Positions 12,062-33,060 of a stretch of 64,000 bases of DNA are shown piece by piece. The DNA lies in NCBI GenBank assembly GCA_965243025.1, contig CBDETY010000003.1, positions 1,728,001-1,792,000 of the forward strand. The letters run 5' to 3'. The translations under genes and the position numbers were made by a program. This DNA is from Candidatus Latescibacterota bacterium. Its GTDB lineage: Bacteria; Latescibacterota; UBA2968; UBA8231. The first letter of the stretch is position 1, and each line of letters starts with the position of its first letter. Below the pieces are notes generated by a model that did no database searches, was not told where the DNA came from, and saw only the letters and a list, made by a program, of their open reading frames with translations.

Positions 12062-12254
12062 CAAGCCCCGGGTGATTTTTCGGGCGCTGGCGATCATCGA
12101 TTTCAGTGGTTATTATCTGCAAATACGGTTGCCGCTTTCCGTAGAACCACTCCGGACCGGGCTCCAGCCGGATGGTTTCCGCGATTGCCGAGCTGGCTTC
12201 CCGTATCTTCCCCCCTGCTTTTCGCTCTAAAGCCCACTCCCCCCGGATCGCCCG

Positions 12255-13682: not shown

Positions 13683-13698
13683 GCGGCCTTTTTTTTTT
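13665..13698 (+). terminator. Rho-independent terminator overlapping the purB stop
   Basis: AAAGGCCGCCT-tttgt-AGGCGGCCTTT followed by a long T run. Confidence 0.85.
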
Positions 13699-13737
13699 GC
13701 AGCACAACCAGTCGGGAACCAGGAGACTGCAAACCGG

Positions 13738-17137: not shown

Positions 17138-17983
17138 TTAGAAAACCCAGACAATGAGCATCGATCCGCCCACGTATCCGAACGCCTCCAGCAAACCCGC
17201 TCCGATCCTCGGAGTCTCTGCGGTCTGTTCTCCGGCGAGACTCACCCCGGGGGCGAGAAGCAGGTCGGTCAGTTTCTTGATGAGGTAGAGAGCGACCAGA
17301 CCGAACAGGACATCCGCGGCGAACAACTTCAGGCTCTCCGCCCACCCCGTGAAGTCTCCGCCGACCGAGATGCTGACGATGTTTCCCATGCCGACCAGAA
17401 CGCCGCCGAAAGCAAGGCCTACGGCGGCGTTGTCGCGCTCGAGCTCGTCGTGGATGCTGTGCGACGTGGTCCACTCGTACAGCAATCCCGCCAGCAGCAG
17501 AACGACCTGGGCGATTGCCCAGAACGCGATTCCGGTCTGCCAGGCACCCGCCCCCTGCTGTATTGACAGAAGGATCAGTCCGTTGGCGATATGCAACCCC
17601 GCCTCGACGAAGGCGGTCCCCAGGTTCTGGTCCTCGACGATCTCCTTGGTGTTGTCGAAATGATGCAGCAGCAGCTTTTCACAGATGAAGCTGGCGACAA
17701 GCATCATCACCACCGTCTGCAGGCCGAAGAGGGCGATGGAGGTCAGGTCGGCCTGCAAGCCCGCGGATGGCCCCGTGAGAACGCCCCCGAGGGCGATGAC
17801 GATCCCGAGCAGGTACCCGGCGGTCGAAACCGCGAGGGCGCTGTTCGAACGCCCGAAGATCTCATCCTTCAGGGAAACCCGCCTGTAGATGCGGGTATAG
17901 GCGAACTTGGCGATCCACATCAACACGAACGCTTCGAGGACGTAGACCGCGGAGCGGCCCATGAAGCCCAGTTGTTCTGCCAT
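17138..17983 (-). CDS. DUF350 membrane protein (duplicated domain)
   Basis: Repeated EI..xN.A motifs (DEIFGRSNSALA, KEIVEDQNLGTA, DELERDNAAVG); about 8 TM segments. Confidence 0.8.
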   Translation of the reverse strand: MAEQLGFMGRSAVYVLEAFVLMWIAKFAYTRIYRRVSLKDEIFGRSNSALAVSTAGYLLGIVIALGGVLTGPSAGLQADLTSIALFGLQTVVMMLVASFICEKLLLHHFDNTKEIVEDQNLGTAFVEAGLHIANGLILLSIQQGAGAWQTGIAFWAIAQVVLLLAGLLYEWTTSHSIHDELERDNAAVGLAFGGVLVGMGNIVSISVGGDFTGWAESLKLFAADVLFGLVALYLIKKLTDLLLAPGVSLAGEQTAETPRIGAGLLEAFGYVGGSMLIVWVF

Positions 17984-18057
17984 GCCTACCGAATCCTTCC
18001 CCGGCTGTCAGCCGAACCTCGGGTTGTTCCGGATAAAACCACTTGACAGGCGGCCGT

Positions 18058-18747
18058 TCATTTTCCCCGGCCGAATCCACCCCGGAAAGAGGCGCTCCGC
18101 GCCCGCGTCCCGAAACCGCGCCCCCCGGAGCTTACGCGCTGGCGGTAGCGATTGTAAAAACCGGGACGCGTTTTCTGCGTAACGCTGCCGCGCGTGCCGA
18201 AGGCCGGCCGTCCCCTTTCCTTGGGGCCGAAGTACGGACGTCCGCGCTCGTAGTTGCGCCGGTAGTTCTGGTAGTCGTTCCGCCCGATGTTCCAGCCCCC
18301 GAGCATCTGGCTCATGAAGGCGTACTGGCCGTAAAACTGCCAGAATCCCCCTCCTCCCCAGTATCCGTAACTGGAATTCCCGACGTACTGGTAAGCGGGG
18401 GGATGGGCCTGGCGGACGCCGGTGGTGCGGCCGTCTTGGGATTTCGACGACACCACCATGCCGAGGTAGTGCTGGTAACGGGCGAAGGTCTCCTCGGGAA
18501 CCTCCATCCACTCCGTGGTCTTCGGCTCGTACACGAGGGTGTCCCGCCCCGCGATCCGCTGGCCGGACGCGGTCAGCACTCGAAAGCGGATGAAATAGTC
18601 GGGAAAGAACCCGTCTTCGACGCGCAGGTCGTCGACAATGAGGGAGTATTCCGGGTAGCGGCCCAGATCGCGGACAAGGGTGTCCACCGGATCGGCTGAT
18701 CTGCCGCAGCTGAAGGCGCCGGCGAGGCAGAGCGCCGCCGCTGCCAC
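18058..18747 (-). CDS. lipoprotein with a Gly/Tyr/Arg-rich tail (start uncertain, about 18747-18795)
   Basis: LAGAFSC lipobox; PPAYQYVGNSSYGYW...FWQFYGQYA; C-terminal SFRGGFGRGK. Confidence 0.75.
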   Translation of the reverse strand: MAAAALCLAGAFSCGRSADPVDTLVRDLGRYPEYSLIVDDLRVEDGFFPDYFIRFRVLTASGQRIAGRDTLVYEPKTTEWMEVPEETFARYQHYLGMVVSSKSQDGRTTGVRQAHPPAYQYVGNSSYGYWGGGGFWQFYGQYAFMSQMLGGWNIGRNDYQNYRRNYERGRPYFGPKERGRPAFGTRGSVTQKTRPGFYNRYRQRVSSGGRGFGTRARSASFRGGFGRGK

Positions 18748-18805
18748 CCGAAGCAGGAGGCAGGCCCCCCGGCTCCGACGGGGCCCGGAATCAACCGGGC
18801 CGGGG

Positions 18806-19360
18806 CTAACCGGCAGGCAGGATGTTGGTGAACTGGTACTCTTCGACATACTCACCTTCGTAAGCGGAAAAGTCGCGGTCCCCGGACTGGACGACGTAGA
18901 GAACGCGCCCTGCCTCGCTTTCGTAGCTCCAGCTGACGAACTCCCGGGCTTGCGACGCTCCCGAGGGCCCGGCGTTCTCCACCATGGTGCCGGATCCGGA
19001 TTCGACCGCGGCGTACTCCCCCTCTTCGAACCGGACCTGCTCAGGGGGTTCCCCTTCGTCGAGGATGGTCCCGGCGACGTCCCCGTCGACATCGCGAAGT
19101 GAAATCCGCCGGGTCAGCGTCCACTCGACCTTGCCGTCCTCAGAAGCGCGCTCGAGGAAACGCACCCGATCCCCGCTGGAAATCTGCCACTCGCTCGTCT
19201 CCTGGCCGTCGTAGTCGAACGATGTCATGGCGGTCACCTCCCAGGTCAGGAGGTCGTAGTCGACGAAGAAGCCGATCCTCATCTTGTCGAGAGTGTAATC
19301 GACCAGCGGGTCGATCTCGGGTTCTTTTTCCCGGCGCCACAGCTTCTTGAAACTCACCAT
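18806..19360 (-). CDS. DUF4178-like protein
   Basis: VDYDLLTWEV...EW, FVSWSYES, YEGEYVEEYQFTNILP; located in the PspA operon. Confidence 0.72.
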   Translation of the reverse strand: MVSFKKLWRREKEPEIDPLVDYTLDKMRIGFFVDYDLLTWEVTAMTSFDYDGQETSEWQISSGDRVRFLERASEDGKVEWTLTRRISLRDVDGDVAGTILDEGEPPEQVRFEEGEYAAVESGSGTMVENAGPSGASQAREFVSWSYESEAGRVLYVVQSGDRDFSAYEGEYVEEYQFTNILPAG

Positions 19361-19415
19361 GCGGATTCACCCAGGGATCCGGGCGGAGACCTCGGGGGAG
19401 ACCGGCTCTCGTCCC

Positions 19416-20969
19416 CTACCAGCGACCCCAGTCCTCCCTATAGTACTGCGCCAGAAGGGGCCGGTCCAGGCGGTTCGCCTCTACCTCCACCGGTGCCATG
19501 TCCGGTGGAAAAACCGTCATCGCCGGCAGCATCTCGGGCCGCAGGTAACGCGTAGGCACCGTCAGAGGCGCCTCCGCAAGGGGAGGCGCGGCCGCACCGG
19601 CGGCGAGGAAGAATCCCCATTCCCCCAGCGTCGGCACCGGAACGCGGTAAGGAACCGCTCGCAAACCCGCCTCCGCAAGGGATTTTCCGATGCTCCAGAA
19701 GGTCTTTCTGGTGAAATACGGACTGGTCGCCTGGGTCGCCAGCATACCTCCCCGGGCCAGGTGGCGGCGGAGAATCCGGTAGCCTTCGACCGAATACAGC
19801 TTGCCAAGCGAATCGATCCGGGGATCGGGAAGGTCGACGATGATGACCCCGTAGGGGATCAGATCCTGCTGGATGAACCGGAAGGCATCCTCGTTCAGGA
19901 TGCGGACCTCGGGGCGGTTCAGGGAATTTCGGTTGAGGTCCGTCATGCGCACGTCGCGGCGGGCGAGGTCGGTCACCGCCTCGTCCATGTCGACGAGATC
20001 GACCGCGACGACATCGGGATACTTCAACACTTCGCGCGCCGAAAGGCCGTCTCCGCCGCCAATTATCAGCACCCTGTCCCGGCTGCCGGCGAGGGACATC
20101 GCCGGATGGACGAGGGCTTCGTGGTAGCGGTACTCGTCGCTCGACGAGAATTGCAGATGTCCGTCGAGGAACAGGCTGATCTCCTCCTTCCACTGCGTCA
20201 GCACCACTCTCTGGTACGGTGATTGGGCGCTGTAGACGATGCGGTCGCTGTAGAGATTGCTTTCCCAGCGCTCGCGCAGTGCCTCGGCGCGCAGCAAAAG
20301 ACCGCCGAGAACGGCGCCGAACAGGACGGACTGCAGCGCGAGCAGGCGCACCCGTCCCCCGTTCAGCACACCCCGGAAGGCGACCAGCAGCACCACCCCG
20401 ATACCGACGTTTATCCCCCCGGTGACGAGGGCGGTATCGAAGGTCCCGAGAAGCGGCAGCAGCAGGTAGGGAAAAAGAAGGGCGGCGATCAGCGACCCGA
20501 TGTAGTCGAGAGACAACAGGTCGGCCAGCACCTGCCTCAGGGTTCCGTACTGACGAAGGATGCGCGCCAGCAGGGGCAGCTCGAGCCCGACCAGGCCCCC
20601 GATAACCAGGATGAAGAGGATCATCCAGTAGCGGTACTGCCCCGAGTACGAGTAAACCGCGTACAGGGCCGGGACCGAACACCCCCCGGCCAGCCCGAGC
20701 CAGAGCTCGATGGATATGAATTTTGTAATCAGGTCGCGCTTGCAAAGCCTTGAGATCCAAGAGCCTGCCCCCATCGCGGCCAGAAAGAAGCCGATTGTAA
20801 GAGAAAACTGTTCGACACTGTCGCCGAGGAAGTAGGAGGAGATGGTGCCTATGAGGAGCTCGTAGATGATCGCGCAGCCCGCCGCGGCGAAAATCGAGGC
20901 GAGCAGCAGCGCGACCCCCAGGCGGGATGCACCGGGGTCGGTGGAGCCGGGGACCGCCTCGTCAGGCAC
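19416..20969 (-). CDS. speE: membrane-anchored polyamine aminopropyltransferase (spermidine synthase-like)
   Basis: About 7 N-terminal TM segments; LQFSSSDEYRYHEALVHP, IIGGGDG, VIIVDLPDP. Confidence 0.9.
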   Translation of the reverse strand: MPDEAVPGSTDPGASRLGVALLLASIFAAAGCAIIYELLIGTISSYFLGDSVEQFSLTIGFFLAAMGAGSWISRLCKRDLITKFISIELWLGLAGGCSVPALYAVYSYSGQYRYWMILFILVIGGLVGLELPLLARILRQYGTLRQVLADLLSLDYIGSLIAALLFPYLLLPLLGTFDTALVTGGINVGIGVVLLVAFRGVLNGGRVRLLALQSVLFGAVLGGLLLRAEALRERWESNLYSDRIVYSAQSPYQRVVLTQWKEEISLFLDGHLQFSSSDEYRYHEALVHPAMSLAGSRDRVLIIGGGDGLSAREVLKYPDVVAVDLVDMDEAVTDLARRDVRMTDLNRNSLNRPEVRILNEDAFRFIQQDLIPYGVIIVDLPDPRIDSLGKLYSVEGYRILRRHLARGGMLATQATSPYFTRKTFWSIGKSLAEAGLRAVPYRVPVPTLGEWGFFLAAGAAAPPLAEAPLTVPTRYLRPEMLPAMTVFPPDMAPVEVEANRLDRPLLAQYYREDWGRW

Positions 20970-22638
20970 GCGTCAATCCTTTCAGGGAGCTCTCGCAGGG
21001 GATATCGAGAAGATCGAGACACTCTTCCGCCGCGCGAAGGCCGTGAAATACAGCCTCTTCGAACAGGGGAAGCCCCGACACGTCGCAGGTTGCAAAGGAA
21101 ACGGCACCGCAACGGAGCTGCCTGAGTTCGAGGTCGTTTCCCCACATGACGCCGGGTTCCGGTCTCACCATGGCGTGGCCCCACAGGTAGAGGTCGAGGC
21201 GCTCGACGAGGTCCTCGAGTCCGGGGTGAGCGGCGGTCAGGTCGGACATCACCGCGTCTGCCCAGAACCGGTGAGACCGCTTCAGCAGGGCATGCCGGGC
21301 CACTTCCGGATCGCTGGCGAAGGGCAGGTAGTAAACCAGGGTCCTTCCCCGCTGCGACACCGACCCCTGATGGCCGGCGTCGAGATAGCCGACGGACGGA
21401 CCATCGTACAGGACGTTGTCCCATGCGAACCGATCCGGCGACAGGTCTCCGCCACCCCCCTTTTTCAAATGCAGGGCAGCGACCAGCCAGGGAGAGTAAC
21501 GCAACCGCGACATGGCCAGGCGCTGCCCAGCTGGCAGTTCCCGAACGACGAACGGAGCGGTGTGCAGCTTGCCGGCATAGACGACGGAGCGGGCACGAAC
21601 CCGGTAGCGCCGTCCTGAAACCAGGTCGATACAGGCAAGCTCCGCCCCTTCGGGGGCCGGGCCGATGGCAACCACAGCGGTGAGTGTGCGCCGTTCTTCG
21701 GGAAGCATCCGGCCCGCCAGCGCCTCGGTCAGGTAACCGTTTCCCTGTTCCCAGGTCAGGGTGTCGCTGGGATACTGCTCGGAGACCCGCCGGTCGTAGA
21801 GCCTGCAGGCGAAGTAATGGATCCCCGCCCAGGCCGAGACATCCCGGCCGAGACAGCCGTAGTCATCCCGGCAACAGTAATCCACCAGCCATCGCAGCGG
21901 CGCAGCCGTCCACTTCCGGCTTTCCATGTAGTCGGCCATCGATATCCGGTCCAGGCCGCGAACCTTCGAATCGGCGGTGCTGTAGGCGGCCGGCATGGCG
22001 AAACCCCGGCGTCCGTCGGCGCCCGCCAGAATCGTCCAGCGCAGCATGTCGTCCTCGAACTCCCGCCACTGCTCCACCGCTTTCGAACCGGCGTTGCGGA
22101 ACGGATCGAGCCCTTCTTCCCAGTCCCCGTCGAGGAAGAGCCGCTCCCGGGGGTGTTTTACGAGGTGGTCGGGATTGACGCGCGGCCTTCCGGATGCGTC
22201 GTACCCGGTGATGACCCCGATGTCGGCGAGCAGCTCGTGGATGCAGTCCGCCTCTGCCGGAGGAACGTTGATGTAGTGGGCGCCCCACGGAAATGCGCGG
22301 CCGTTTGCCGATCCCGATATCGAGGTTCCACCGGTCCGCGACTCGAGCTCGAACAGGCAGAGCCTGCCGACTCCGGCGGCCTTGAGCTTCCAGGCCGCCG
22401 CAAGTCCCGAGACACCCCCGCCGGCGATGGCTGTATCGAGGACCGGCTCGGCGGCTGCCGGGAATTCCTCGAGCACATGCCGGGAGCGCAGCAGGTGCCC
22501 CCGTTCCGCCGAGCTGCCGTTGACGATCTCTCCGGGGATACCGAAGGAGCGGTTCGGCCTGTCTCCGGCGCCTCCGCAGCCGAGGGCCAGGCCACCTGCA
22601 AAGGCCCGCAGAAAGGCCCTCCGCGTCAGAGGTCTCAT
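20962..22638 (-). CDS. Tat-exported FAD-dependent amine oxidase-like protein
   Basis: TRRAFL twin-arginine signal; GGGVSGLAAA, ELESRTGG, PWGAHY, WGHAM, LFEEA. Confidence 0.85.
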   Translation of the reverse strand: MRPLTRRAFLRAFAGGLALGCGGAGDRPNRSFGIPGEIVNGSSAERGHLLRSRHVLEEFPAAAEPVLDTAIAGGGVSGLAAAWKLKAAGVGRLCLFELESRTGGTSISGSANGRAFPWGAHYINVPPAEADCIHELLADIGVITGYDASGRPRVNPDHLVKHPRERLFLDGDWEEGLDPFRNAGSKAVEQWREFEDDMLRWTILAGADGRRGFAMPAAYSTADSKVRGLDRISMADYMESRKWTAAPLRWLVDYCCRDDYGCLGRDVSAWAGIHYFACRLYDRRVSEQYPSDTLTWEQGNGYLTEALAGRMLPEERRTLTAVVAIGPAPEGAELACIDLVSGRRYRVRARSVVYAGKLHTAPFVVRELPAGQRLAMSRLRYSPWLVAALHLKKGGGGDLSPDRFAWDNVLYDGPSVGYLDAGHQGSVSQRGRTLVYYLPFASDPEVARHALLKRSHRFWADAVMSDLTAAHPGLEDLVERLDLYLWGHAMVRPEPGVMWGNDLELRQLRCGAVSFATCDVSGLPLFEEAVFHGLRAAEECLDLLDIPCESSLKGLTRA

Positions 22639-22750
22639 GTGAGGTGACGGAAAAGAACGCCGGGCGGGACGTCATCCCGATGCGAGGGCGCCCGGCAGTG
22701 GAGAAGAACCCGCGATGTTACGGGGGGAGCAGGCCCTGCCGGTCGCGGGG

Positions 22751-23458
22751 CTACGACATCCCCATCTTCGACTTGAGCTGGGCCAACGAGTCGGTGGCCT
22801 TGGAGGAGGACTGCCCGGCCAGAGCCTTGTCGATCTCGTCGTCGACCGAGCGCGAGGAATCTGCCATCTCCCCGTACGCTTCGGCCAGCGACTCCTGCTC
22901 GTCAACTTTTTCCTTCATGCGTTCGAGCAGGGCAACCGTGCCGCGGGAATCGACGTTTGCCAGCCTCTGGTTGATCTTCCGGGTCGCGTCCGCGGTCTTG
23001 GCGCGCGCCTTGAGCGTTGCCAGGTCGTTTTCGTACGAGGCGAGCTTCGACTTCAGCTCGTTCACATTGGCCTGGATCTTGTCGACCATGGCGTGCTGGG
23101 CCTGGGACTGCCGGGTCGACTCGAGAGCGCGGGTGGTTCCCTCCTCCTTGCGGGTCAGGGCCTCGGTGGCGAGACGCTCTGCATCGGCCATTTCCATATC
23201 GCCGGACTGCGCCCTCTGCAGCAGCAGCATCGCCTTGCGCTCGTAGTCGCCGGCGAGCCGTTTTGCATCTTCGGCCTCCTTGTCCATACGGATTGCCAGG
23301 GCCTTGACCTCGGCAAGGCTCTTGAGGCTGTCGGCGAGATCGTTCTTGAGGTCCCGGACCGCCTGCTCGCTGATCTTGATGGGATCTTCGAGCTTGTCGA
23401 CAAGGGCGTGCGCTTCGGCCTGTCCGGTCTTGAACAGACGTTGAAAAATACCGGCCAT
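22751..23458 (-). CDS. pspA: PspA/IM30 family protein
   Basis: GIFQRLFK amphipathic start, DKLEDP, long coiled coil, LKSKMG end. Confidence 0.92.
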   Translation of the reverse strand: MAGIFQRLFKTGQAEAHALVDKLEDPIKISEQAVRDLKNDLADSLKSLAEVKALAIRMDKEAEDAKRLAGDYERKAMLLLQRAQSGDMEMADAERLATEALTRKEEGTTRALESTRQSQAQHAMVDKIQANVNELKSKLASYENDLATLKARAKTADATRKINQRLANVDSRGTVALLERMKEKVDEQESLAEAYGEMADSSRSVDDEIDKALAGQSSSKATDSLAQLKSKMGMS

Positions 23459-23478
23459 GAGTTCCTGCTCCTTCCGTT

Positions 23479-23895
23479 CTAGGCTTTGGGCGCCGACTGT
23501 TCCGCGAAGCTCAGAAGCTCTTCCCCGTTCTCGGCAAGGCCGAGGCTGAGAGCGTTGATGGTGGTTTCGAGCTCGCTGAGGTCGAGGGTGTCGAGGGCAA
23601 GGGTGTTCCGGTACAAAAGGGTATCGGCGGCATCGTTGAGGACGAAGGCTCCGAAAACCAGTTCGCGGTTCATCTGCAGAATCCGCCGGTACATTTCCGC
23701 CCCGGCTCCGGAATCGACCTTCATGATCAACTGCTCGAGCACGAGCACCGACTCTTCGCAGTCGATGACGAGATTGTGAATCCCGCGCTCGTGGTCGTTG
23801 ATGAGGACGATCTCCTCCTCGGGGATTTCCTCGTCGATTTCGAAACCCAGCTCGAGGACGTATTCCTTGACCATGTCAAAGCGCTCCGACATCAC
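23479..23895 (-). CDS. CesT/Tir-chaperone (YbjN-like) protein
   Basis: Small acidic protein; ILQMNRELVFGAFVL, LDLSELETTINAL. Confidence 0.78.
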   Translation of the reverse strand: MMSERFDMVKEYVLELGFEIDEEIPEEEIVLINDHERGIHNLVIDCEESVLVLEQLIMKVDSGAGAEMYRRILQMNRELVFGAFVLNDAADTLLYRNTLALDTLDLSELETTINALSLGLAENGEELLSFAEQSAPKA

Positions 23896-24257
23896 TGCTC
23901 CTTTTCCCGGTTTGACAGCGCCGTTTCCAGCTCCCTGTAGGCGCGGGTGAGTCGCGCCGTCAGCTCGTCGGCCGTGCGGCGCTTCTCCTCGTCCCGGGCG
24001 TGTCTGTCAGGGTGGTACTGCTTCATCATCCGGCGCCATGCAGCGCGCACGGTCTCCAGGTCCGACCCGTACGGCAATTCGAGGTTCGCGTAATACTCGG
24101 CCAGGGCCGGGTCGACATCGGACCGCCGGCTCCCCGGCTCTTCCCGGGGACCGTTTCCCCGTCCGAATTCTCCCGCCTCAAAACGGGGTGTCTCACCGCG
24201 CAGGCGATCGTAAAGCCGCGAGCGGCCGATTTCAATGAGGCGGCGGAAAAGGTCCAT
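23892..24257 (-). CDS. small protein with a C-terminal J domain
   Basis: YYANLEL...WRRMMKQYHPDRH (HPD motif). Confidence 0.88.
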   Translation of the reverse strand: MDLFRRLIEIGRSRLYDRLRGETPRFEAGEFGRGNGPREEPGSRRSDVDPALAEYYANLELPYGSDLETVRAAWRRMMKQYHPDRHARDEEKRRTADELTARLTRAYRELETALSNREKEQ

Positions 24258-24421
24258 GGCCCTGGGTGAGAACGAATCGAATATAGAAGTGCCCGTTCCC
24301 CTGGTCCATACGGGAACCGGACTGGTCTGCCCCCGGTCAGTCAGCCTGCGACCTGGGCCCCGAGCCGGGGATCAACGGAGGTGCAGGGGCGACCGATTCC
24401 GCGGATTTACCCGTGTCCATA

Positions 24422-27076
24422 CTAGTACGGCAGGGCCGACACTGCCTTGCTGATCATCGCCAGGGCGGCGCAGAACATGCCGATCAGCGCCATCCCTACC
24501 CCGAAGCCGACGCTCAGAACCATGGCGTAGCGGCGCCACTCCTGTTTGCCGTACCGCTTCCAGAAGTAGAAGCGCGCCATCAGGGCTCCGACGATCTGCG
24601 GCAGCAAAGAGTGAGGAATTCCGTTGACGCTCTGGACGTACCCCCAGATCAGGAAAATGGGCAGCCCGAGAAATGCCATGGTGAAGTAAGCGACAAGGCC
24701 GAAGCCGGCGGCGAACAGCGAGATCGGCCACTTCCGCCCGTCGAACGGATGGTGCATGTCGGACTCGTCCGTGATCCCGTCGCCGTCGTCGTCCAGTCCG
24801 TTCTTCAGCTCTTCGTCGATGAGCCCGTCGCCGTCGTTGTCGCGCCTGTCCCCGGTGAAGGTCATGTCGCGCCAGTGCGCCTCGAAAAGCAACGGGATGT
24901 CGGACGACCGCTGCAGGAACTCGCCATCGAATGAAGGCAGGCGGTCGACCTCGAAGTAGAACTCGACCGAATCCTGCGGGGCTTCGCTCAGGCGGGCATC
25001 GAAGTTCGGGTTCGGCGTGTCGATGATGTCCCCCGGACGGGGCCAGACAATCCCGGGGGCAGACGGCTGCGCAGACGATGATTCGGAGGGAGGTGAACGG
25101 GGTGGTAACAATCCCAGGTGAGGCGCCTGGGGAGCATCGGGAGCTCCCCTGCCGCTGAAATCGGTGTAGAAATAGCCGGTCTGCGACCACTCGCCGTAAC
25201 GGCGCTTGTCCGGGTCGGGGATATGGACGTCGTACGAGGCGCGCACCCTCCAGTACCACCAGTGCTTGTCCTGCAGGTTGTGCGGACTCCATACGACCTG
25301 ACCTCGCGAGATGGCAGTGCCATCCGAGAGGATCTCCCCGGCTCGCCAGCTGCGGCTGTACATCGTGCTGGAGAAAAACAGGGCCTGTTGGTACGCCTTG
25401 AGGGGCCACATCAATTGGGCATAGGGGTATCGTTCCGAGGGGATCGGGCCGAGCCGCCACAGCATGCTCCAGTACATCATGCTGACCACGAGGATGATGG
25501 GGAGCATGAACAGCTCGGCCTTGAGCAGGCTGGTGAAACGCATCCCGGTCAGCTCGACCACCCGGAACCCCTCGGCGTGGCCGCCGTAGTTCCGCGTCGG
25601 AAACGGCACGAACCAGACATCTACCCCGCGGTACCCGGTAAGAAAGATGACCGCCTCGTTGACATAGGGAATGGAGACTTCGCGGCCGATCATGCCGTCG
25701 AGTCGGGCGCTGACGAACGACATGATCGGGGCGTACACGAAGGCGATGCAGAAGAAGGTGAGGAGCAGCCCGGTGGTGACCAGCGTGGGAAACAGGGTCT
25801 TGGCGAGCACGATCGGGTAGAAAGCGGCGAGCCCGAAAAGCACGAGGCAGAGCCAGATGTTGAAGTCGCCGCGGCCGAGGTGGGTAAGGCAGTAGCCGCG
25901 CACCTCGGAGGGCCGGTTGCAGCCGTCGTGCCGGCAGGTTCTCGGGTACTCTTTGCGCTCGCCGATGACCCTTTCCCGAGCCTCGGCGCGCTGGCGGCGG
26001 CCGCTGGCCAGGAGGTTGTAGAAACTGATGACGGTGACCGCGAGAGTGATTCCGACGGAGAAGGCCTGCCAGAAATCGATGCTGGTGGCGATCTGGGTGT
26101 TGATCGTCGTCATCCCAGGGGCCCAGCTCGGAAGCAGTCCTTTCCAGTAGAGGAAGGGGCTGACCACGGTGTGCACGATGACCCCGGAGAATGAGCCGAT
26201 AACCGCCCAGAAAGGCATCAGCAGGCCGGCGAAGATCGGACCGAGATGGAGAGTGATACCGAGCGGGGTGGCCGGCAGCAGACTCCCGAAAAACGGGGTC
26301 AGATCCCAGAACGGGATCGGGATCACCTGGATCCTTGAACCCATCGCCGCGGTTACCTCGGGGATCCCTACGTACACCGAGCCGAAGATCCCGCCGATGA
26401 CACCCCCGATGCTGAAAACCGGCCACTTCCAGGTCTCGGCCTCGTCGCCGCTCTCCTCGGCGAGGGCCATGGCCGACAGGGCGGACATCGGCGCAGTCGG
26501 AAACGGCAGTTGCTCCCGGTCCGACATCAGCCGGAACAGCAGGTACCCGGAGGTGAACCAGGAAATGCGGCCGACGATGGTGCCGATGATGAGGAGGCCG
26601 ATCGGCCACAACCAGTCCGGGTGCAGGAAAGTGCGCTCGGCGAGGGCGACCGAGTCGGGAGGCGGCGCCCACCACGTCGGCAGGAGCCTGGAGATGCCGA
26701 ACTGTTCCGCCTCGGCGGAGCGCACGAAGTACTGGCGCCACAGCAGGTCGAGAAAAGCCCCTTCCTCGCGCGCCACCAGGGCGCTGGCCACGTACACGAG
26801 CAGGAAGATCTCCTGCCTCTTCAGGGACGTGAAGGAACGCTTTGCGACCTCGAGAAAGAGGATGACCGTGACCCACTGAGCGGCATCCCCTATTCCCCCA
26901 CCGGTAACGAGGCCGAGGTACATCTCCCCCGGTGTCATGATCAGGGAGATGAAGAGAACCCCGATGATCGTCCGGATCGTGAAGCCGTCCTCGAACTTGT
27001 CGGGAGCTTCGAGGAGCGCGCGGTACTCCTCTACCTCCTGCCACTGATTCTGCTTGAGTTTGCGCCTGAATTTCAT
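24422..27076 (-). CDS. OPT-superfamily-like peptide transporter with inserted soluble domains
   Basis: FEDGFTIRTIIG, AAQWVTVILF, EQLPFPTAP motifs; many TM segments; inserted CCCH and DxDxDG modules. Confidence 0.78.
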   Translation of the reverse strand: MKFRRKLKQNQWQEVEEYRALLEAPDKFEDGFTIRTIIGVLFISLIMTPGEMYLGLVTGGGIGDAAQWVTVILFLEVAKRSFTSLKRQEIFLLVYVASALVAREEGAFLDLLWRQYFVRSAEAEQFGISRLLPTWWAPPPDSVALAERTFLHPDWLWPIGLLIIGTIVGRISWFTSGYLLFRLMSDREQLPFPTAPMSALSAMALAEESGDEAETWKWPVFSIGGVIGGIFGSVYVGIPEVTAAMGSRIQVIPIPFWDLTPFFGSLLPATPLGITLHLGPIFAGLLMPFWAVIGSFSGVIVHTVVSPFLYWKGLLPSWAPGMTTINTQIATSIDFWQAFSVGITLAVTVISFYNLLASGRRQRAEARERVIGERKEYPRTCRHDGCNRPSEVRGYCLTHLGRGDFNIWLCLVLFGLAAFYPIVLAKTLFPTLVTTGLLLTFFCIAFVYAPIMSFVSARLDGMIGREVSIPYVNEAVIFLTGYRGVDVWFVPFPTRNYGGHAEGFRVVELTGMRFTSLLKAELFMLPIILVVSMMYWSMLWRLGPIPSERYPYAQLMWPLKAYQQALFFSSTMYSRSWRAGEILSDGTAISRGQVVWSPHNLQDKHWWYWRVRASYDVHIPDPDKRRYGEWSQTGYFYTDFSGRGAPDAPQAPHLGLLPPRSPPSESSSAQPSAPGIVWPRPGDIIDTPNPNFDARLSEAPQDSVEFYFEVDRLPSFDGEFLQRSSDIPLLFEAHWRDMTFTGDRRDNDGDGLIDEELKNGLDDDGDGITDESDMHHPFDGRKWPISLFAAGFGLVAYFTMAFLGLPIFLIWGYVQSVNGIPHSLLPQIVGALMARFYFWKRYGKQEWRRYAMVLSVGFGVGMALIGMFCAALAMISKAVSALPY

Positions 27077-30000
27077 GCCGCAGGTATGGGCGAGGCGAGC
27101 ATGGCCTCGGCCTTTTCCCGGTGATAGGCGCGCGCGTCCGCCCGGAGGGTATGCCAGAGGAGGAACTGCTTGCGCAGGGTGTTCATGAAGCGCTGGTTGA
27201 CCCGCTGCCAGTAGGTATCCTGGCCGCTCAGCCGCTGAATGAACACTTCCACCATGTAGATGCCGCTGCCGTCGGCGGCGGGAAGGAAGTCGAGCTGCAG
27301 GTACTGGCTGACCCCCATGTCGAACGGGGCGAGCCAGGTGAGCATCTGCAGCGAGTACTGCGGAGCACCGGGCGTCTGCTCTTCACTGACGAGGGTGACC
27401 TTTTCCGCATAGAAGTCGCCGATCGATTCCTCCTTGTAGGCGTCGAAGAAGTTGCCCAGGAAACCGCAGATTCCCACAACCTCCCCGGAGCTGACCATGA
27501 ACGGGAACTCGAACTCCCAGCGGTCTCCCGTGGGCCGGGGAGGCTTCCACCGTCTCACCAGATCCGGAACTGCTGCCCGCGACGCCACCCGGGCCGGATA
27601 TACCGTCGAGGCGAGGACAACCGCCATGACCACGGCTGCGGAGGCGACCGCAGCGTACGAAGAGTAGTTGAGGTTGACCCCGGCGGAGAGGTGGAAAGTG
27701 ACGATCGCCTTCCCGAGGGTCTGGCCGAGAAGGTACCCCATGGTGACTCCGATCACTGCGTACACGCAGGCCTCTGCAATGAAGAGGAGGGCGATGTGCA
27801 TCGGCGCCAGCCCGACGGCGGAGTAGATGTCGATTTCGCGGAAGCGCTCGTACACCGCCCCCATCATGGCGTTGAGAACGATCAGCCCGGCGATCAGCAT
27901 CGGAATCACCAGCGCCTGGAACCCTTCGACCGCGGTAAGCCCCACGGAGGTGTACGAGGCGACCGCAATGCGGTCGGTTTCCGGGTCGCGCGTCCCCGCG
28001 AACAGCGTCATCGGAGTCTGGGTGATGAACCCTTCGATCATCCCCCGGATGTCGCCGCCGGGTTCGAAACGCATGGCCACGGACCGCAGCTCTCCTCCCG
28101 CACCGCGCAGCGTCTCGAAAGGCAGGATGACCACGTTGTCCGGGTGCAGGTGCACGAAGGCCCTGGTCTCCTCTTCCCTTTCCGAGGTGTCCTCGACCTG
28201 CTGCGGCCGGGAGCCCATCAGCTCGGCAGAGGAGCGGTGAAAATCGACGGGAGTCAGCGGTTCGTCGTCGAGGTCGTGCAGGGCGAAAAAGGCATCGGCA
28301 TCGAACAGTCCCCGCACTCGCAGCATGGTCCCGAGGACGCGCACGCTGTCCCCGGGAACAAGCGCCGCATCGACACCGAGAATCTCGGCCATCTCGAGGG
28401 AGAGCAGGCAGCTTTTTTCATCCGGGGAATCGAAAAAATCTCCAGCGGCCAGGGCGGTGTGAACGCCCGTTACTCCCCGTTCCTGCGGGGACAGGCCGAG
28501 CAGGGCCGTCGACAGCGAGGAGCCTTCTCCATGGCTGATCCGGATGTACCCCTTCTCCTCGGACTGGGCGATGTACCAGTTGCGGGGGGAAAGAACGGCG
28601 CGCTCGCCGAAGTAGGACCTCGCCGCCTCCATCTTCCACCTTCCGATCCAGTCCCAGTTGTGGTGCCGGATCAGGGCCCCTTCGTAGGCCCCCTCATGCC
28701 GGTGTGAGAAGGCGAAAAACTGGACGTCCGGCTTGAAGGAGGAGAACGACAGGACCGTGAAGGTCAGCAGGGTGATCGTGCCCAGGGTCAGGCTCGTCCG
28801 CAGCTTGCGACGGCGCATGTTGGAAATTCCGAGCATGAAGGCGGTGTAGGCGGCGCTGAACCGGCTTATGTCGGTCTGGTGCACTCTCGCCTGCTCGGCG
28901 CGGTATTCCCGGAGGTAGCGGTTGAAGCGGGTCACGACCATGAGCAGGACGAAAACCGCCATCGCCATGATCGCGAAGGCGAGCAGGACGACCAGGGGGT
29001 GGGCGATCGCGAAGGCGGGATGGACCTGGGAAATTATCGCCCAGATCACTATGAGGACGGCGACGAAACCGGTCAACTGCATGCGGATATCCGGCGATGC
29101 CAGGACCAGCCGCTCGGTGAAGAAGGCTGCGGGAATCACCAGAGCCAGAAAAAACACCATCCCCTTGATCACGTCGTTGAGGGTACCGATCACCTCCGGA
29201 TAGGCCCGGAAGATCATTCCCCCCGCTTCGCGTATGTCCCTTGTGTAGTCGTCCCAGCGGTGCTCGGCCATGGCAGCCTCCGCACGCTGCAGCAAGCGGC
29301 GCCCGTTCTGCTGGAACCGGGAAACGCTGTGGTTCTCGATGGCGTGCTTGCGCATCGTGTGCAGGCGCGCTTCGTTGAGGCGCATCATGTCGCGAATCAC
29401 GTAGAACTCCGTCGGAGTCAGGGTGTCGCGTCTGAAGTGGTAGCCGATCCCCCGGGCGGTGCTCTCGTCATTGCCGCCCGGGCTGTTCAGAAGATAGCGG
29501 GCACCTCCGAAGGTTCCGGCCATGACTTTGAGACCGTCGGTCTGCTCCGGAAGGTCGCGGTCGGCGTAGACCAGGGCTGCAAAACCGCTGCGGGAGTACC
29601 CGAACTGCCTCGGGGCGCGGCCGCTCCGGTCGAGAATCTTGAAGCTGTCGGAGCTCCCCCCCAGGCCGAACAGCCTGCCGGGGACGCAGGGAAACAGGAC
29701 CAGGGTCTTCTCGTCCGCCGTCCACCGCGTCACCCATGGAATCTTCCCGCTGAACCCCGGTTCTCCCGCGAACTTCTGCGCTCTCTCACTCAGGTCCGGG
29801 GCAAACAGGACCTGCCCTGTCTCCCTGTCGAGAACGAAGGCGGAAACACCGGTGGTGTACCCGACCACCAGGCCATGCAACGTCACGTCCCCGTCCTCGT
29901 TCGTCAGGTAGTACCGTTCCTGGTGGACTCCCTTGTCGACGAGGTCGTACCCTTCGCTGACCACGGCCTGGGGCACGGGGCGGTTCGGCATCTGCGCCCG

Positions 30001-31503
30001 CCTCGGGAAGGAGCGCACCTTGACCTGATGGGTGCGCAGGTTGTCCCGGAGAACGGGATCGAACTCATCGAGATTCTCCAGCAGCTCCGGATCGTCGAAA
30101 GCCAGGGACAGGATGCCGTTGAGAAACCGGATCTGGGCGGCGAGCTGTCCGAAGCGGACCTCCCCGGCCCGGTCGAGGGGACTGTTGAGGGAGAGCCTGG
30201 CGTCGTGGGTGGTGACGAAACTGAGGGCGAGCTGCCCGGCTTCCATCGCCACCTTTCCGCTCGCGGGCACTCCCCCGGGGGCCAGCGTAGACCAGTCGAT
30301 CCCCTTGATCGGGCTGATGCCGTTGGCGAAGGCGGCGGTTGGCTCTCTCCCCTGAACTGAAGCAACTTCCTTCGCGTACCGGGTGAATCGGCGCGAGAAC
30401 GGAACGAACAGCCGCTTGAGTTCGAACCGGTCCGAGTTGTTCCAGACGGCGACCTGGTCTGTCCGCGAGCTCAGGTCGAGACTGATGAAGAGATCGACTT
30501 CGAGCGGCTCTTCCATCCACCTGGCGTACTCCTCGTTCTTTCTCGCGTGGCGGTTGAGGAAATCGATCATGCCGCGTTGCCCCTGGAAGTGGGCACCCGT
30601 CGCGGACAGAATCACCGTGCGGGCCGGCGGGTTCGATTGCAGGTGCCGCGCAAGCTCCAGGAGGGCGACGATGCTGCAGGAGGTCTCCGCCGAAGGAGCG
30701 AGGGCGGGAACGATCGAAATCCCGTCGTAGTAGGCGTCGACTACTATGGTCTGGTCCCGCAGTTCCGGGTCCGACCCGACCACCTTGCCCCGGATGTTCC
30801 AGGCCGGCTGCTCGCGCCAGTCCATGCGGCTGTGGACAACCACGGAAACCGGGTCCCCGCCGGCGACCCGGCGGCGAAGTTTCAGTCCTGACTCCCGGTC
30901 GATCCAGAACCGGGGAATGTCCAGGGGAACACTGGCGACCTTGTCGAGGGTTTGCAGGTACCCGGTATCCTCAGGCTCGATGAAGATGAAGGCGCGGGCT
31001 CCGAACCGGGCTGCCCGAGTCCACAGGTCCCAGCTGTTGAATTCCATGAGCACGGCGCTGCCGTTGAGTGGAAGTCCCTCGAAGTCGGCGTACTCCCCCC
31101 ATCCCCCGTACACCAGCGGCAGCTCGATTCCTTCCGGGGGTGTCGTGGTGGTACGCACGTGATTCGGCCACAGGCCGAAAACCGGAAAGACCTCGCCGGA
31201 GCCGGAAAGCACCAGCCGGCTTCCTTCCTCGACCGGAACCGCTACCCTGTACTGCTCCCGGCGCATGTCGACGCAGCCGTTGCGGCGCAGCCCCTCCTCG
31301 ATATACGAAGCGGCGCGCGCGTTGCCGGGGTATCCGGTTACCCGGGAACCCGATGCGAGGGTGTGGACCGCTGCTTCGACACGAGCGGTGAGATCGGGAG
31401 CCTCAGCCGGCTGGGAATCCTGGGAGGCACCGGCGGCGGAGACGGCCACTGCTGCCGCCATGAGGGCGGTGCGGCGGTAGGAGGGCAACTTGATTGGGGG
31501 CAT
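27073..31503 (-). CDS. giant M28-peptidase-like/PA domain plus FtsX-like permease fusion
   Basis: Signal peptide; SRVTGYPG, VDAYYD, ALLELA; TM block; NMRRRKLRTSLT and VYERFREIDIYSAVGLAP FtsX-type motifs; overlaps the OPT start by 4 bp. Confidence 0.8.
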   Translation of the reverse strand: MPPIKLPSYRRTALMAAAVAVSAAGASQDSQPAEAPDLTARVEAAVHTLASGSRVTGYPGNARAASYIEEGLRRNGCVDMRREQYRVAVPVEEGSRLVLSGSGEVFPVFGLWPNHVRTTTTPPEGIELPLVYGGWGEYADFEGLPLNGSAVLMEFNSWDLWTRAARFGARAFIFIEPEDTGYLQTLDKVASVPLDIPRFWIDRESGLKLRRRVAGGDPVSVVVHSRMDWREQPAWNIRGKVVGSDPELRDQTIVVDAYYDGISIVPALAPSAETSCSIVALLELARHLQSNPPARTVILSATGAHFQGQRGMIDFLNRHARKNEEYARWMEEPLEVDLFISLDLSSRTDQVAVWNNSDRFELKRLFVPFSRRFTRYAKEVASVQGREPTAAFANGISPIKGIDWSTLAPGGVPASGKVAMEAGQLALSFVTTHDARLSLNSPLDRAGEVRFGQLAAQIRFLNGILSLAFDDPELLENLDEFDPVLRDNLRTHQVKVRSFPRRAQMPNRPVPQAVVSEGYDLVDKGVHQERYYLTNEDGDVTLHGLVVGYTTGVSAFVLDRETGQVLFAPDLSERAQKFAGEPGFSGKIPWVTRWTADEKTLVLFPCVPGRLFGLGGSSDSFKILDRSGRAPRQFGYSRSGFAALVYADRDLPEQTDGLKVMAGTFGGARYLLNSPGGNDESTARGIGYHFRRDTLTPTEFYVIRDMMRLNEARLHTMRKHAIENHSVSRFQQNGRRLLQRAEAAMAEHRWDDYTRDIREAGGMIFRAYPEVIGTLNDVIKGMVFFLALVIPAAFFTERLVLASPDIRMQLTGFVAVLIVIWAIISQVHPAFAIAHPLVVLLAFAIMAMAVFVLLMVVTRFNRYLREYRAEQARVHQTDISRFSAAYTAFMLGISNMRRRKLRTSLTLGTITLLTFTVLSFSSFKPDVQFFAFSHRHEGAYEGALIRHHNWDWIGRWKMEAARSYFGERAVLSPRNWYIAQSEEKGYIRISHGEGSSLSTALLGLSPQERGVTGVHTALAAGDFFDSPDEKSCLLSLEMAEILGVDAALVPGDSVRVLGTMLRVRGLFDADAFFALHDLDDEPLTPVDFHRSSAELMGSRPQQVEDTSEREEETRAFVHLHPDNVVILPFETLRGAGGELRSVAMRFEPGGDIRGMIEGFITQTPMTLFAGTRDPETDRIAVASYTSVGLTAVEGFQALVIPMLIAGLIVLNAMMGAVYERFREIDIYSAVGLAPMHIALLFIAEACVYAVIGVTMGYLLGQTLGKAIVTFHLSAGVNLNYSSYAAVASAAVVMAVVLASTVYPARVASRAAVPDLVRRWKPPRPTGDRWEFEFPFMVSSGEVVGICGFLGNFFDAYKEESIGDFYAEKVTLVSEEQTPGAPQYSLQMLTWLAPFDMGVSQYLQLDFLPAADGSGIYMVEVFIQRLSGQDTYWQRVNQRFMNTLRKQFLLWHTLRADARAYHREKAEAMLASPIPAA

Positions 31504-31869
31504 CCGCAAGCCCGCCGGTCGGGGGGGTGCGATGGTTGAGAACAGCCCCTGGTTCGAGTTGGACGGGTGGGAACAGGAGCCAAGGTATTCCTTCGATAAA
31601 GATTGGGCAATCTGAATTTCGGGCGTTTCCGGGTTGAAACAGGTTTGACGTGTCATCGACCTTGCTGAACCAGCGATGCTCCCGCCATGCCCGTTCACTG
31701 CCCGCTGTGGATCTTGCCGGGTTGCGTCCCCGTGGCCGCCTGCTCACCCCGGTTGCCATCTCGGGCTCCGGTGCCGGATGGCACTTGCTTTTTCCTCTTC
31801 CCAGCTTCGTATTCGGACTCCCCCGGCAAGTCCCGGGCATCGGAACCCGATCGAGCAGGAGAACGGCCA

Positions 31870-33060
31870 ATGGGTGTCACCGACGGCAAACTGGAAAAGC
31901 GGTTTCTGCATCACGCCCGGCGGCTGATGCCGCTCCCGACGGCCCCGTTTCGCGAGCAGTTCGTGATGGAAGCGATCTCGCGCCAGGCAGCGGAGCTCGG
32001 TCTGGAGACTCAGTCCGATGCCGTGGGGAATCTCCTGCTCGTTTACCGGGGGAACCGGGATTCGGGATTCGTCCCCCGGGTGATATTCACCGCCCACATG
32101 GACCACCCAGGTCTGCTCTACTCCCGGCCTCTCTCCCCCCGCGACCACCTGTTCGAGCTCGCCGGGAACGTGAACGTCGATCTGGCGAAGAAGAGCGAGG
32201 TCGACATCTACGACCCGGCAGGAACCGCGGACCAGGTTCCGGTTCGTGGTGTCGTCGACTCGTATGCCGGGCCTGAGGGCGGACGGCCGGTTTTTTCGGT
32301 CCGCACCGCCAGGGCGGATTCCGGGCTCCTGACACCGGATTCGTTCGCCATGTGGCGGCTCCCCGTGCTGCGGCAGCAGGGACGCCTTCTGAGAGGCCGC
32401 GCCTGCGACGACCTCGCCGGTGTGACGGTGGGGCTCGCTGTCATGGACCATCTGCGCCGCAGTCGATCCCGGACCTGCGCCGGCCTCCTGCTGACGCGTG
32501 CGGAAGAGACGGGATTCGGCGGCATGATGGCGGCCGTAAGGGGCGACTGGCTGCCGCGAGGGCCGCTCTACATCAACATTGAGTGTTCGAGCCGGCGCGC
32601 CGGGGCGGAGCTCGGGGCAGGTCCGGTCATTCGCGTCGGAGACCGCATTTCGGTATTCGACCCGCGTCTCTGCGCCGGGCTGGTCGCCATGGCGGAGGGT
32701 GAGGCGGAAGGCTTCGAAGGTCGGGGATTGCCATACCAGCGCAAGCTGATGGATGGGGGCGCGTGTGAAGCAACGGTCCTGGCGCTGGCCGGTTTCCAGG
32801 TCGGGGCGGTTGCCCTTCCACTCGATCATTACCACAATTGGGGAAGAAAGCGCCTGCGACCCGAAGCAATCGACATCGGAGACGCCGGCGCCCTCGTCAA
32901 ACTGCTGGTTCGCGCCGCGGTCTGCCGGGAAGGAGTTGCCGGCAGCGGCGAGGGGGCGCAACGCAACGTCGAGCGCAGGCTGGAAACCCGCTACCGGAGC
33001 CAGCGGCCGCGCCTGGAGGAAGCCCGTTCACCCCGTCCCTTGGGAGGAACAATGTCATGA
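31870..33060 (+). CDS. M20/M28/M42-family metallopeptidase or hydrolase
   Basis: DAVGN, TAHMDHPG, RACDDLAG, TRAEETG, GGACEAT, YHN motifs intact. Confidence 0.82.
   Translation: MGVTDGKLEKRFLHHARRLMPLPTAPFREQFVMEAISRQAAELGLETQSDAVGNLLLVYRGNRDSGFVPRVIFTAHMDHPGLLYSRPLSPRDHLFELAGNVNVDLAKKSEVDIYDPAGTADQVPVRGVVDSYAGPEGGRPVFSVRTARADSGLLTPDSFAMWRLPVLRQQGRLLRGRACDDLAGVTVGLAVMDHLRRSRSRTCAGLLLTRAEETGFGGMMAAVRGDWLPRGPLYINIECSSRRAGAELGAGPVIRVGDRISVFDPRLCAGLVAMAEGEAEGFEGRGLPYQRKLMDGGACEATVLALAGFQVGAVALPLDHYHNWGRKRLRPEAIDIGDAGALVKLLVRAAVCREGVAGSGEGAQRNVERRLETRYRSQRPRLEEARSPRPLGGTMS

Follow-up and report, generated by a model that had tools for sequence, protein, structure and literature searches.

A candidate type VII ABC envelope system with a peptidase-like ectodomain and OPT-fold partners in a Latescibacterota bacterium

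ABC (ATP-binding cassette) systems of type VII are few, and the jobs that they do differ: lipoprotein sorting, control of division hydrolases, efflux, and lipid extraction. MacB, LolCDE, FtsEX, HrtBA, YtrEF, and YbbAP share an FtsX C-terminal domain, four transmembrane (TM) helices, a periplasmic domain between TM1 and TM2, and an ER-x-x-EIG coupling helix, and ATPases of the LolD/MacB class are the partners of such FtsX-type permeases. Here we describe two overlapping genes, A and B, in a 64,000-nucleotide stretch of the genome of a Candidatus Latescibacterota bacterium (GCA_965243025.1, contig CBDETY010000003.1, positions 1,728,001 to 1,792,000), which we call the window. Gene A encodes a permease that has these same features, and gene B encodes an OPT-like membrane protein. 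We found that A and B are a conserved, co-duplicated unit in at least two phyla. We propose that the two proteins are subunits of one undescribed type VII (MacB/FtsX-class) ABC envelope machine with OPT-fold partners, by which, with a probability that we put at roughly 40%, a peptide-like ligand is captured outside and then imported.

A departs from the named type VII systems in adding about 770 N-terminal extracytoplasmic residues, three TM helices, and a C-terminal cytoplasmic domain, in having OPT-fold membrane proteins as its constant partners, and in the lack of a linked ATPase in the window. We know of no named type VII system with OPT-fold partners. Operons orthologous to the A locus hold a LolD/MacB-class ATPase and a second, smaller FtsX, an arrangement that recalls the LolC/LolE pair. 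Like FtsEX-EnvC and YbbAP-TesA, A couples an FtsX-type permease to an extracytoplasmic domain with a hydrolase fold, and its site is degenerate, as is the LytM domain of EnvC. The fold in A, however, is of the M28/PA kind instead of LytM/M23 or SGNH and forms part of the permease polypeptide, not a separate protein that binds the periplasmic domain; no amidase or lipid-hydrolase partner is evident. Inactive M28/PA ectodomains are used as receptors in the eukaryotic single-pass proteins nicastrin and transferrin receptor, and A likewise would expose a PA/M28 fold that lacks the canonical di-zinc site on the outside of a membrane complex.

B has the fold of the OPT/YSL transporters (PF03169, TC 2.A.67), such as barley YS1, and sequence links to Pfam OPT proteins, but it fails the Pfam OPT model and carries an insert of about 200 amino acids (aa) as well as a zinc-ribbon-like loop. 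Whereas characterized OPTs work alone, the B gene is tied to that of an ABC-type permease. At 884 aa, B is not a member of the DUF6785/DUF6784 group either, but only a distant paralogue with end-to-end profile homology; its undecorated relatives of about 650 aa are similar in length to proteins of that group, and the two kinds occur in the same operons.

A full-text literature search returned no paper on DUF6785 or DUF6784, and among the matches listed for FtsX in combination with OPT or M28 peptidase there was nothing on this system. No described counterpart was found for a fused M28/PA ectodomain, an extra TM block, a C-terminal domain, and, above all, constant OPT-fold partners. An earlier sequence-only reading of this DNA had called the system undescribed, and the search yielded no account of it. 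Public annotations of these proteins read “FtsX-like permease family protein,” “M28 family peptidase,” “hypothetical protein,” “DUF6785 family protein,” and, once, [quoted passage not shown] If our proposal is true, the A-B system would extend the type VII ABC class by one more job and by a partnership of a new kind, and it would provide the first functional context for DUF6785, DUF6784, and a large branch of bacterial OPT-like proteins. Because the operon is present in cultured sulfate reducers, the proposal is testable without uncultured Latescibacterota.

Conservation of A and B and their third partner

The two genes and their junction lie as follows.

27073..31503, minus strand: gene A, 1,476 aa (1,476 codons), a MacB/FtsX-type (type VII ABC) permease with a fused, degenerate PA/M28 ectodomain
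24422..27076, minus strand: gene B, 884 aa (884 codons), a divergent membrane protein of the OPT superfamily
27073..27076, minus strand: ATGA, in which the stop of gene A shares bases with the start of gene B

The overlap of the two genes at this ATGA, described in the sequence-only reading, was confirmed. The open frame of gene A spans 27073..31698, and we chose the ATG at 31503 as its likeliest start because the nearest homologue (P0123) is 1,477 aa long and 96% identical over 100% of the query. Homologues of gene A measure 1,430 to 1,512 aa and show 46 to 96% identity. Third-codon-position GC content, 0.82 in gene A and 0.86 in gene B, resembles that of neighboring genes.

Loci were taken around relatives of B, with one genome per species: 524 pattern matches gave 508 confirmed relatives, the best 80 of which were examined. 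Within flanks of up to 10 kb, six-frame open reading frames (ORFs) were scored with hidden Markov models (HMMs) of five A regions and of other components. Where the sequence upstream of B measured 3,000 nucleotides (nt) or more, as it did in 67 loci, A was found upstream of B on the same strand in all but one (66 of 67). Eleven of the 80 loci are without A, and ten of these have 2,570 nt or less upstream of B. The loci are labeled Latescibacterota, Gemmatimonadota or Gemmatimonadaceae, Armatimonadetes (one locus), and, in many cases, Desulfobacterota; cultured carriers are Desulfopila sp. IMCC35008 (L029), Desulfacinum hydrothermale DSM 13146 (L044), and Maridesulfovibrio sp. FT414 (L079).

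A third gene, D, accompanies A and B in most loci. It is a separate gene of about 660 to 720 aa that encodes DUF6785 plus DUF6784 (PF20581, PF20580), and it is the usual partner, which the sequence-only reading had missed. Gene orders were distributed as follows.

A-D-B: 51 loci, with Desulfobacterota labels
D-A-B: 10 loci, with Latescibacterota/Gemmatimonadota labels
A-B-D: 1 locus (L004), with a Latescibacterota label
D on the same strand in any order: 70 of 80 loci, across all labels

Over 57 loci, pairwise distances of A and B are correlated (r = 0.92), and the A tree and the B tree split into the same two paralogue groups. Two complete D-A-B triads, one from each paralogue group, occur in a single metagenome-assembled genome (MAG) (L003 and L010, assembly JAPYQE01), from which it follows, independently of the species tree, that A and B were duplicated together. 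Seven of the best 120 A homologues are fusions of about 2,100 aa that continue beyond A into Pfam DUF6785 and DUF6784, with the DUF6785 part coming directly after the C-terminal domain of A. A contig size of 9,773 nt is common to an A (P0132), a B (P0012), and a partial D (P0437). By these observations A and B are conserved together, and the two proteins probably form a physical complex. In a complex prediction, full-length B and residues 762 to 872 of A, its block of three TM helices, scored 0.03 and 0.01 against a mark of 0.32, values that speak neither for nor against an interaction.

Several loci show variations of their own. The sole assessable locus in which B is parted from A, L028:10019-14037 in a Desulfatirhabdiaceae MAG, has B and three small downstream genes and, within 10 kb upstream, no A, D, ATPase, or small FtsX; its upstream region holds genes for electron transfer flavoprotein and a SpoIIE phosphatase instead. 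The B proteins of L003 and L010 are 70% and 54% identical to that of the window, and the paralogue groups among the Latescibacterota/Gemmatimonadota-labeled loci number at least three. The frame of A is broken into two or more ORFs in L004:5497-9979, L017:2969-7805, and L078:3156-7922, where either pseudogene frameshifts and stops or assembly errors may be responsible. Long A frames of about 1,945 and 1,830 residues (about 1,800 to 1,900 aa from the first start) are found at L018:4001-9835 and L041:4504-9999; one is extended at the N terminus by about 400 residues, and in the other the M28-like and middle domains contain inserts. Neither of these two loci has a D within its flanks.

Architecture of A and its remodeled peptidase site

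From its N terminus, A is laid out in the following parts.

31420..31503, minus strand: putative signal peptide, aa 1 to 28, read from sequence alone (basic n-region, Ala-rich h-region, AGA-SQ)
30184..31386, minus strand: PA/M28-like domain with a remodeled metal site, aa ~40 to 440, from the family profile against the PDB
29194..30183, minus strand: beta-rich domain and three-helix stalk, aa ~441 to 770, from the AlphaFold2 model (strands at model residues 79 to 261, long helices at 288 to 390)
28888..29193, minus strand: family-specific block of three TM helices, aa ~771 to 872, with a conserved QVHPAF-IAHP loop, from hydropathy, model helices (340 to 390, 396 to 423, and 426 to 462), and invariant residues
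28729..28887, minus strand: cytoplasmic helix with an SNMRRRKLRT motif, and FtsX TM1, aa ~873 to 925, from hydropathy, alignment, and model
27925..28728, minus strand: MacB-type periplasmic domain, aa ~926 to 1193, from Foldseek matches to 5c59 (2.6e-4) and 3ftj (5.1e-4)
27574..27924, minus strand: FtsX TM2 to TM4 with the coupling-helix motif VYERFREIDIYSAVGLAP, aa ~1194 to 1310, from Pfam FtsX and the alignment to MacB 5gko
27076..27573, minus strand: C-terminal cytoplasmic alpha/beta domain, aa 1311 to 1476, with model confidence mostly 80 to 92

The N terminus, MPPIKLPSYRRTALMAAAVAVSAAGA, is a probable signal peptide. In a Pfam scan, A of the window matched the FtsX C-terminal domain (PF02687) alone (43.4 bits against a cutoff of 25.5; E = 4.2e-11). 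Peptidase_M28 and MacB_PCD gave no Pfam match in this protein; both are present in homologues, MacB_PCD in P0129 (1.5e-7) and PF04389 in several. When the single window protein was compared with PDB sequences, MacB was matched at 8.7e-6 and the PA-domain M28 aminopeptidase 2ek8 weakly at 8.6e-4. The profile of the A family (25 members) matched 2ek8 at 4.8e-13 and YwaD (6hc6) at 6.3e-10, and also MacB, YtrF, LolC, and LolF.

An AlphaFold2 model of residues 411 to 1476, built from 55 sequences, reached a mean predicted local distance difference test score (pLDDT) of 79.7 and a predicted TM score (pTM) of 0.66. The model runs from the beta-rich domain through the three-helix stalk into three TM helices, the cytoplasmic helix, FtsX TM1, and the periplasmic domain and continues with TM2, a short coupling helix, TM3, TM4, and the C-terminal alpha/beta domain, an order with which hydropathy concurs. 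It thereby has the topology of type VII ABC permeases, with four TM helices and a large periplasmic domain between TM1 and TM2. Foldseek matched it to MacB 5gko (1.7e-10), to LolC/E, HrtB, and YtrF (E from 1e-10 to 1e-5, MacB included), to YbbP, and to isolated MacB periplasmic domains at 2.6e-4 to 5e-4. The stretch comprising the SNMRRRKLRT helix and TM1 aligns to the pre-TM1 region of MacB and YtrF, a similarity that is not significant alone.

The coupling helix between TM2 and TM3, VYERFREIDIYSAVGLAP, aligns to VTERTQEIGVRMAVGA of MacB, and its residues E, R, E, I, Y, G, A, P, and H are invariant in 55 A sequences drawn from both ATPase-linked and ATPase-unlinked loci. The beta-rich/stalk region and the C-terminal domain are kept in both phyla, as detected with the A_mid and A_Cterm HMMs. 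A PDB sequence search with the middle and C-terminal domains gave nothing below E 0.1, and the Foldseek list was filled by MacB-type matches, with no relative for either domain; the C-terminal domain had no usable match in the ESM Atlas. The layout given in the sequence-only reading, from signal peptide to C-terminal domain, agrees with hydropathy, the family profile, AlphaFold2, and Foldseek, apart from the signal peptide, which was read from the sequence. One length needs correction: that reading counted about 500 further extracytoplasmic residues after the M28-like fold, whereas about 330 separate the end of that fold (~440) from the TM block.

The co-catalytic zinc ligands of M28 peptidases are His, Asp, Glu, Asp, and His, and a Glu is catalytic. 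We placed these residues in A by aligning it to 2ek8 and 6hc6. The positions were then compared in 60 family members, of which 46 are of Desulfobacterota type and 14, the window protein among them, of Latescibacterota type.

First zinc-ligand His position: Y, F, S, or P in 60 of 60 members
Catalytic Glu position: His in 52 of 60 members, Glu in 0 of 60
Adjacent ligand Glu position: F/Y/C/H or A/G/S/N in the 58 members tabulated, the two neighboring Glu positions together being mostly H-F or H-A
Last His position: chiefly N, T, or G
Bridging Asp position: retained as E or D
Second Asp position: D, E, or H

D260, P270, and R436 are invariant in the 60 members, A272 is kept in 59, and E/D273 and H305 in the pocket are near-invariant. 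Judged from these alignments, the canonical M28 di-zinc site has been lost in A and the pocket has been conserved. The claim that the peptidase is dead agrees with the absence of the canonical site throughout the 60 members, and A would not be classed as an active M28 peptidase, given the substitutions at the zinc-ligand and catalytic Glu positions. A conserved pocket without the canonical di-zinc site leads us to read the PA/M28-like domain as a ligand-binding pseudo-enzyme.

B as a divergent OPT-like protein and D as its remote paralogue

B of the window had no Pfam family match of its own, with none to OPT (PF03169), PF20581, or PF20580 at E values up to 1, and no PDB sequence match; the B family profile gave nothing significant against PDB sequences. 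The best 120 homologues are 66 to 99% identical. In an exhaustive phmmer search, 938 cluster representatives were matched at E of 1e-3 or less and 260 at 1e-30 or less, many of which are undecorated proteins of 620 to 700 aa that align just to aa ~6 to 578 of B and to its C-terminal helices. Six of 15 distant relatives scanned carried Pfam OPT, five of them above the gathering score (among these P0317 at 1.3e-17, P0385 at 7.3e-15, and P0343 at 5.7e-13), and those five are themselves phmmer matches of B at 5.6e-139 to 6.2e-42. The HMM searches that the sequence-only reading had called for were thus positive in the window proteins for FtsX; Peptidase_M28 and OPT were matched in homologues and in distant relatives, respectively.

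An AlphaFold2 model of B (72 sequences; pLDDT, 84.5; pTM, 0.84) matched barley YS1 in Foldseek (7wst at 5.6e-8 and 7wsr at 1.2e-7; probability, 1.00; 562 to 567 columns; target-normalized TM score, 0.54 to 0.56), and the next match had an E value of 0.014. The ESM Atlas returned only proteins of the same kind as B (“Peptide transporter family protein”; score, 0.90). Taken from the intermediate sequences and the modeled fold, B is OPT-like, as had been suggested, and is best placed as a divergent sister branch rather than a Pfam-level OPT member.

Three decorations were located in B.

25880..25942, minus strand: zinc-ribbon-like insert C-x4-C-x11-C-x2-H, aa 379 to 399 in an Arg-rich loop, read from the sequence
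24731..25354, minus strand: lineage-specific beta-rich insert of ~200 aa, aa ~575 to 782, with model strands at 575 to 711
24758..24841, minus strand: acidic DxDGDG repeats that end this insert, aa 746 to 773 (NCBIfam acidic repeat, 2.8e-4)

A Pfam match to Zf_WRKY19 at the zinc-ribbon-like insert is weak (0.041 in the window; 0.0011 in P0106 and P0243). The Desulfobacterota forms of B, at about 650 aa, are too short to hold the inserts of the window protein. In the B orthologues of other lineages, the loop that bears the ~200-aa insert holds PDZ domains or Reg_prop repeats, and modules such as these are usually extracytoplasmic.

D appears, from profile comparison, to be a remote paralogue of B. 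Aligned with hhalign, the B family (116 sequences) and the D family (71 sequences) matched along their whole length, in 570 columns that include a common E-[RKQ]-L-x-[FY]-P motif; the probability was 94.5% (E = 8.2e-8), against 0.2 to 0.4% for controls (reversed alignments and an unrelated membrane profile). A shallower comparison of 24 and 7 sequences reached 14.5% only, and a BLASTP comparison of the fused protein P0202 with B gave no significant match.

An HMM scan of ORFs found no D in the 64-kb window. At the syntenic loci L001:3337-5487, L003:3382-5535, and L006:3410-5566, D sits between a divergent M42-like peptidase gene and A; the corresponding interval in the window (31504-31686) is only 183 nt long and does not contain it. 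None of the best 120 D-family clusters lies on a contig matching in size those of the closest A and B relatives of the window. There are faint hints that the whole sub-clade of the window lacks, and may have lost, D.

Energy source and direction of transport

No transport-type ABC ATPase is encoded in the window, so that the earlier observation of no adjacent ATPase gene holds for all 64 kb. The sole ABC-type match was a UvrA-like ORF of 777 aa (58223-60556, minus strand; weak ABC_tran match), which appears unrelated to A and B, as does a 797-aa ORF without a Pfam family (49309-51702, plus strand). Among the Desulfobacterota loci of A-D-B order, 48 have 8,700 nt or more of upstream sequence; in 48 of 48 the gene directly upstream of A encodes an ABC ATPase, preceded in 47 of them by a small FtsX gene (~216 to 245 aa, with hardly any periplasmic loop). 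The top NCBIfam models for this ATPase are LolD (1.2e-69), MacB-NBD, and FtsE, with scores below their equivalog cutoffs. An ATPase in the orthologous operons and an invariant coupling helix lead us to infer that an ATPase is encoded elsewhere in this genome. The sequence-only reading had offered an OPT subunit in place of the ATPase; the 48 operons and the coupling helix, which is invariant in both forms of the locus, speak against this idea. The constant partner that it had proposed to look for was found, in the form of an ATPase, in Desulfobacterota but not in 18 Latescibacterota/Gemmatimonadota-type loci.

The Desulfobacterota operons are often larger. In 29 of the 48, a GT28C (MurG-like) glycosyltransferase gene and/or a DUF2334 deacetylase-like gene stands directly before the small FtsX gene on the same strand, and in most of them three more genes, one of them PqqD-like, follow B on its 3' side. 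None of these upstream and downstream additions was seen in the window or in any of the 18 Latescibacterota-type loci, and thus they do not belong to the conserved core. In L029, GT28C and DUF2334 genes occupy 3-1681, as they do upstream in many Desulfobacterota loci, and the genes after B (12173-14038) encode a protein of ~210 aa with an N-terminal hydrophobic segment, a Cys-containing protein of ~290 aa without a family, and a PqqD-like protein of ~140 aa. Farther on, on the opposite strand, Desulfobacterota loci hold genes for a STAS protein, an anti-sigma-type kinase, a cyclic nucleotide monophosphate-binding protein, and an ABC exporter of ~840 aa.

We speculate that A is a mechanotransmitting permease, in which ATP hydrolysis by a LolD/MacB-class ATPase, supplied in this genome by an unlinked gene, would move the periplasmic domain and the N-terminal ectodomain. 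The PA/M28-like pocket of A would serve as a ligand receptor, not as a peptidase, and B would be the conduit across the cytoplasmic membrane. The ATP-controlled pseudo-peptidase ectodomain would capture or release a peptide-like ligand outside, and the OPT-fold carrier would take it up. By analogy with dimeric yellow-stripe transporters, B probably works in a pair with D or, here, with a second copy of itself; barley YS1 forms homodimers (PMC9691689), which makes a heterodimer of B and D the natural inference. Such a machine may be a hybrid of primary and secondary transporter, a tentative idea in which ATPase-driven movement outside the membrane gates or feeds paired OPT-fold carriers coupled to A. 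We lean toward ATP as the source of energy in this organism; these genes probably do not encode a device that lacks an ATPase and draws its power from the OPT protein. That the cargo is peptide-like and moves inward is possible, as suggested by the OPT/YSL fold of B, the aminopeptidase fold and conserved pocket of A, the PDZ inserts, flanking genes for cytoplasmic-type peptidases, and the role of characterized OPT/YSL proteins as importers (PMC9691689).

A number of observations weigh against this proposal. No small FtsX gene lies in the window, and 18 of 18 Latescibacterota/Gemmatimonadota-type loci have neither an ATPase nor a small FtsX gene in their flanks, so that ATP drive in this organism is carried over from another phylum. 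The usual three-part core is incomplete at this locus for lack of D. Peptidase neighbors are present in some loci only, mostly in one syntenic clade. To our knowledge, no characterized type VII ABC system is an importer. Characterized systems, including MacAB-TolC, LolCDE, FtsEX-EnvC, and YbbAP-TesA, are known to act outward, on the periplasmic side, or on periplasmic partners (in part, PMC12646458), and the GT28C/DUF2334 pattern suits glycoconjugate synthesis and export better than peptide uptake.

The last two points lend weight to the same complex working outward, in export or assembly. The OPT-fold proteins would then carry a small molecule, glycolipid, glycopeptide, or modified peptide of cytoplasmic origin out, and at a later step the MacB-type module would extract or push it from the outer leaflet or periplasm and hand it to the ectodomain for delivery to the envelope. 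The three genes that follow B in most of the Desulfobacterota operons would fit such a pathway, but neither they nor the glycosyltransferase and deacetylase genes reach the Latescibacterota-type loci, no gene for an adaptor or an outer-membrane duct was seen in the loci, and the import role of characterized OPT/YSL proteins (PMC9691689) runs the other way; we consider export rather unlikely, though it is the main rival to import. It is improbable that A is instead a regulator like FtsEX-EnvC, whose FtsX module switches the degenerate ectodomain so as to activate or hold a separate periplasmic hydrolase while the OPT-fold proteins recover the products or act as anchors. A degenerate peptidase fold on an FtsX-type permease does mirror FtsEX-EnvC logic, the site is remodeled yet conserved, and YbbAP-TesA pairs a type VII ABC system with a hydrolase. 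No conserved hydrolase gene lies beside the core in either phylum, however, and the very high conservation of B (66 to 77% across the phylum) together with the A-D fusions indicates that the carriers are central.

We regard it as very improbable that this lineage dispenses with an ATPase and that the OPT-fold subunit supplies proton-gradient energy to the FtsX-type giant or does the translocation for it. The lack of an ATPase gene and of a second FtsX gene in the window and in the flanks of the 18 loci is what such a device would predict, and the extra conserved cytoplasmic domain of A could stand in for a nucleotide-binding partner. An unlinked ATPase gene would account for the same absence, however, and it would agree with the 48 orthologous operons that carry the ATPase and with the invariance, in both locus types, of the motif that docks the ATPase in MacB-type proteins. 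That A and B are unrelated neighbors overlapping by chance is hardly conceivable: four-base overlaps are frequent in compact genomes, but the synteny census contradicts this explanation, since the genes are adjacent in 66 of 67 assessable loci from two or more phyla, A is fused to the paralogue of B in some genomes, and the pair was duplicated jointly.

The genes that flank A and B in the window recur in few loci. An M42-like peptidase gene is divergent from A (31687-33060, plus strand) and is also found in L001, L003, and L006. Its Pfam match is partial (E = 1.1e-12, residues 229 to 384 of a 457-aa ORF), and its start was probably called too early. Other flanking peptidase genes are an M42 gene downstream in L008 and an M24 gene directly upstream of A in L041. 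Directly 3' of B (17138-24257, minus strand) lies a cluster of membrane-stress type, with genes for PspA/IM30, for proteins with a DnaJ domain or resembling YbjN/CesT or spermidine synthase, for a flavin amine oxidase, and for a DUF350 protein, and with an uncharacterized 344-aa ORF. The PspA/DnaJ-like/YbjN-like cluster was rejected as a part of the system, since the loci with it 3' of B (L003, L006, and that of the window) all belong to a single syntenic clade and no others have it there; in L003 and L006 the part that follows B is DnaJ-YbjN-PspA(-spermidine synthase). A scan of 23800-32000 was of little information, with 3 promoter-like sites where 1.1 would be expected and 5 terminator-like sites where 5.4 would be.

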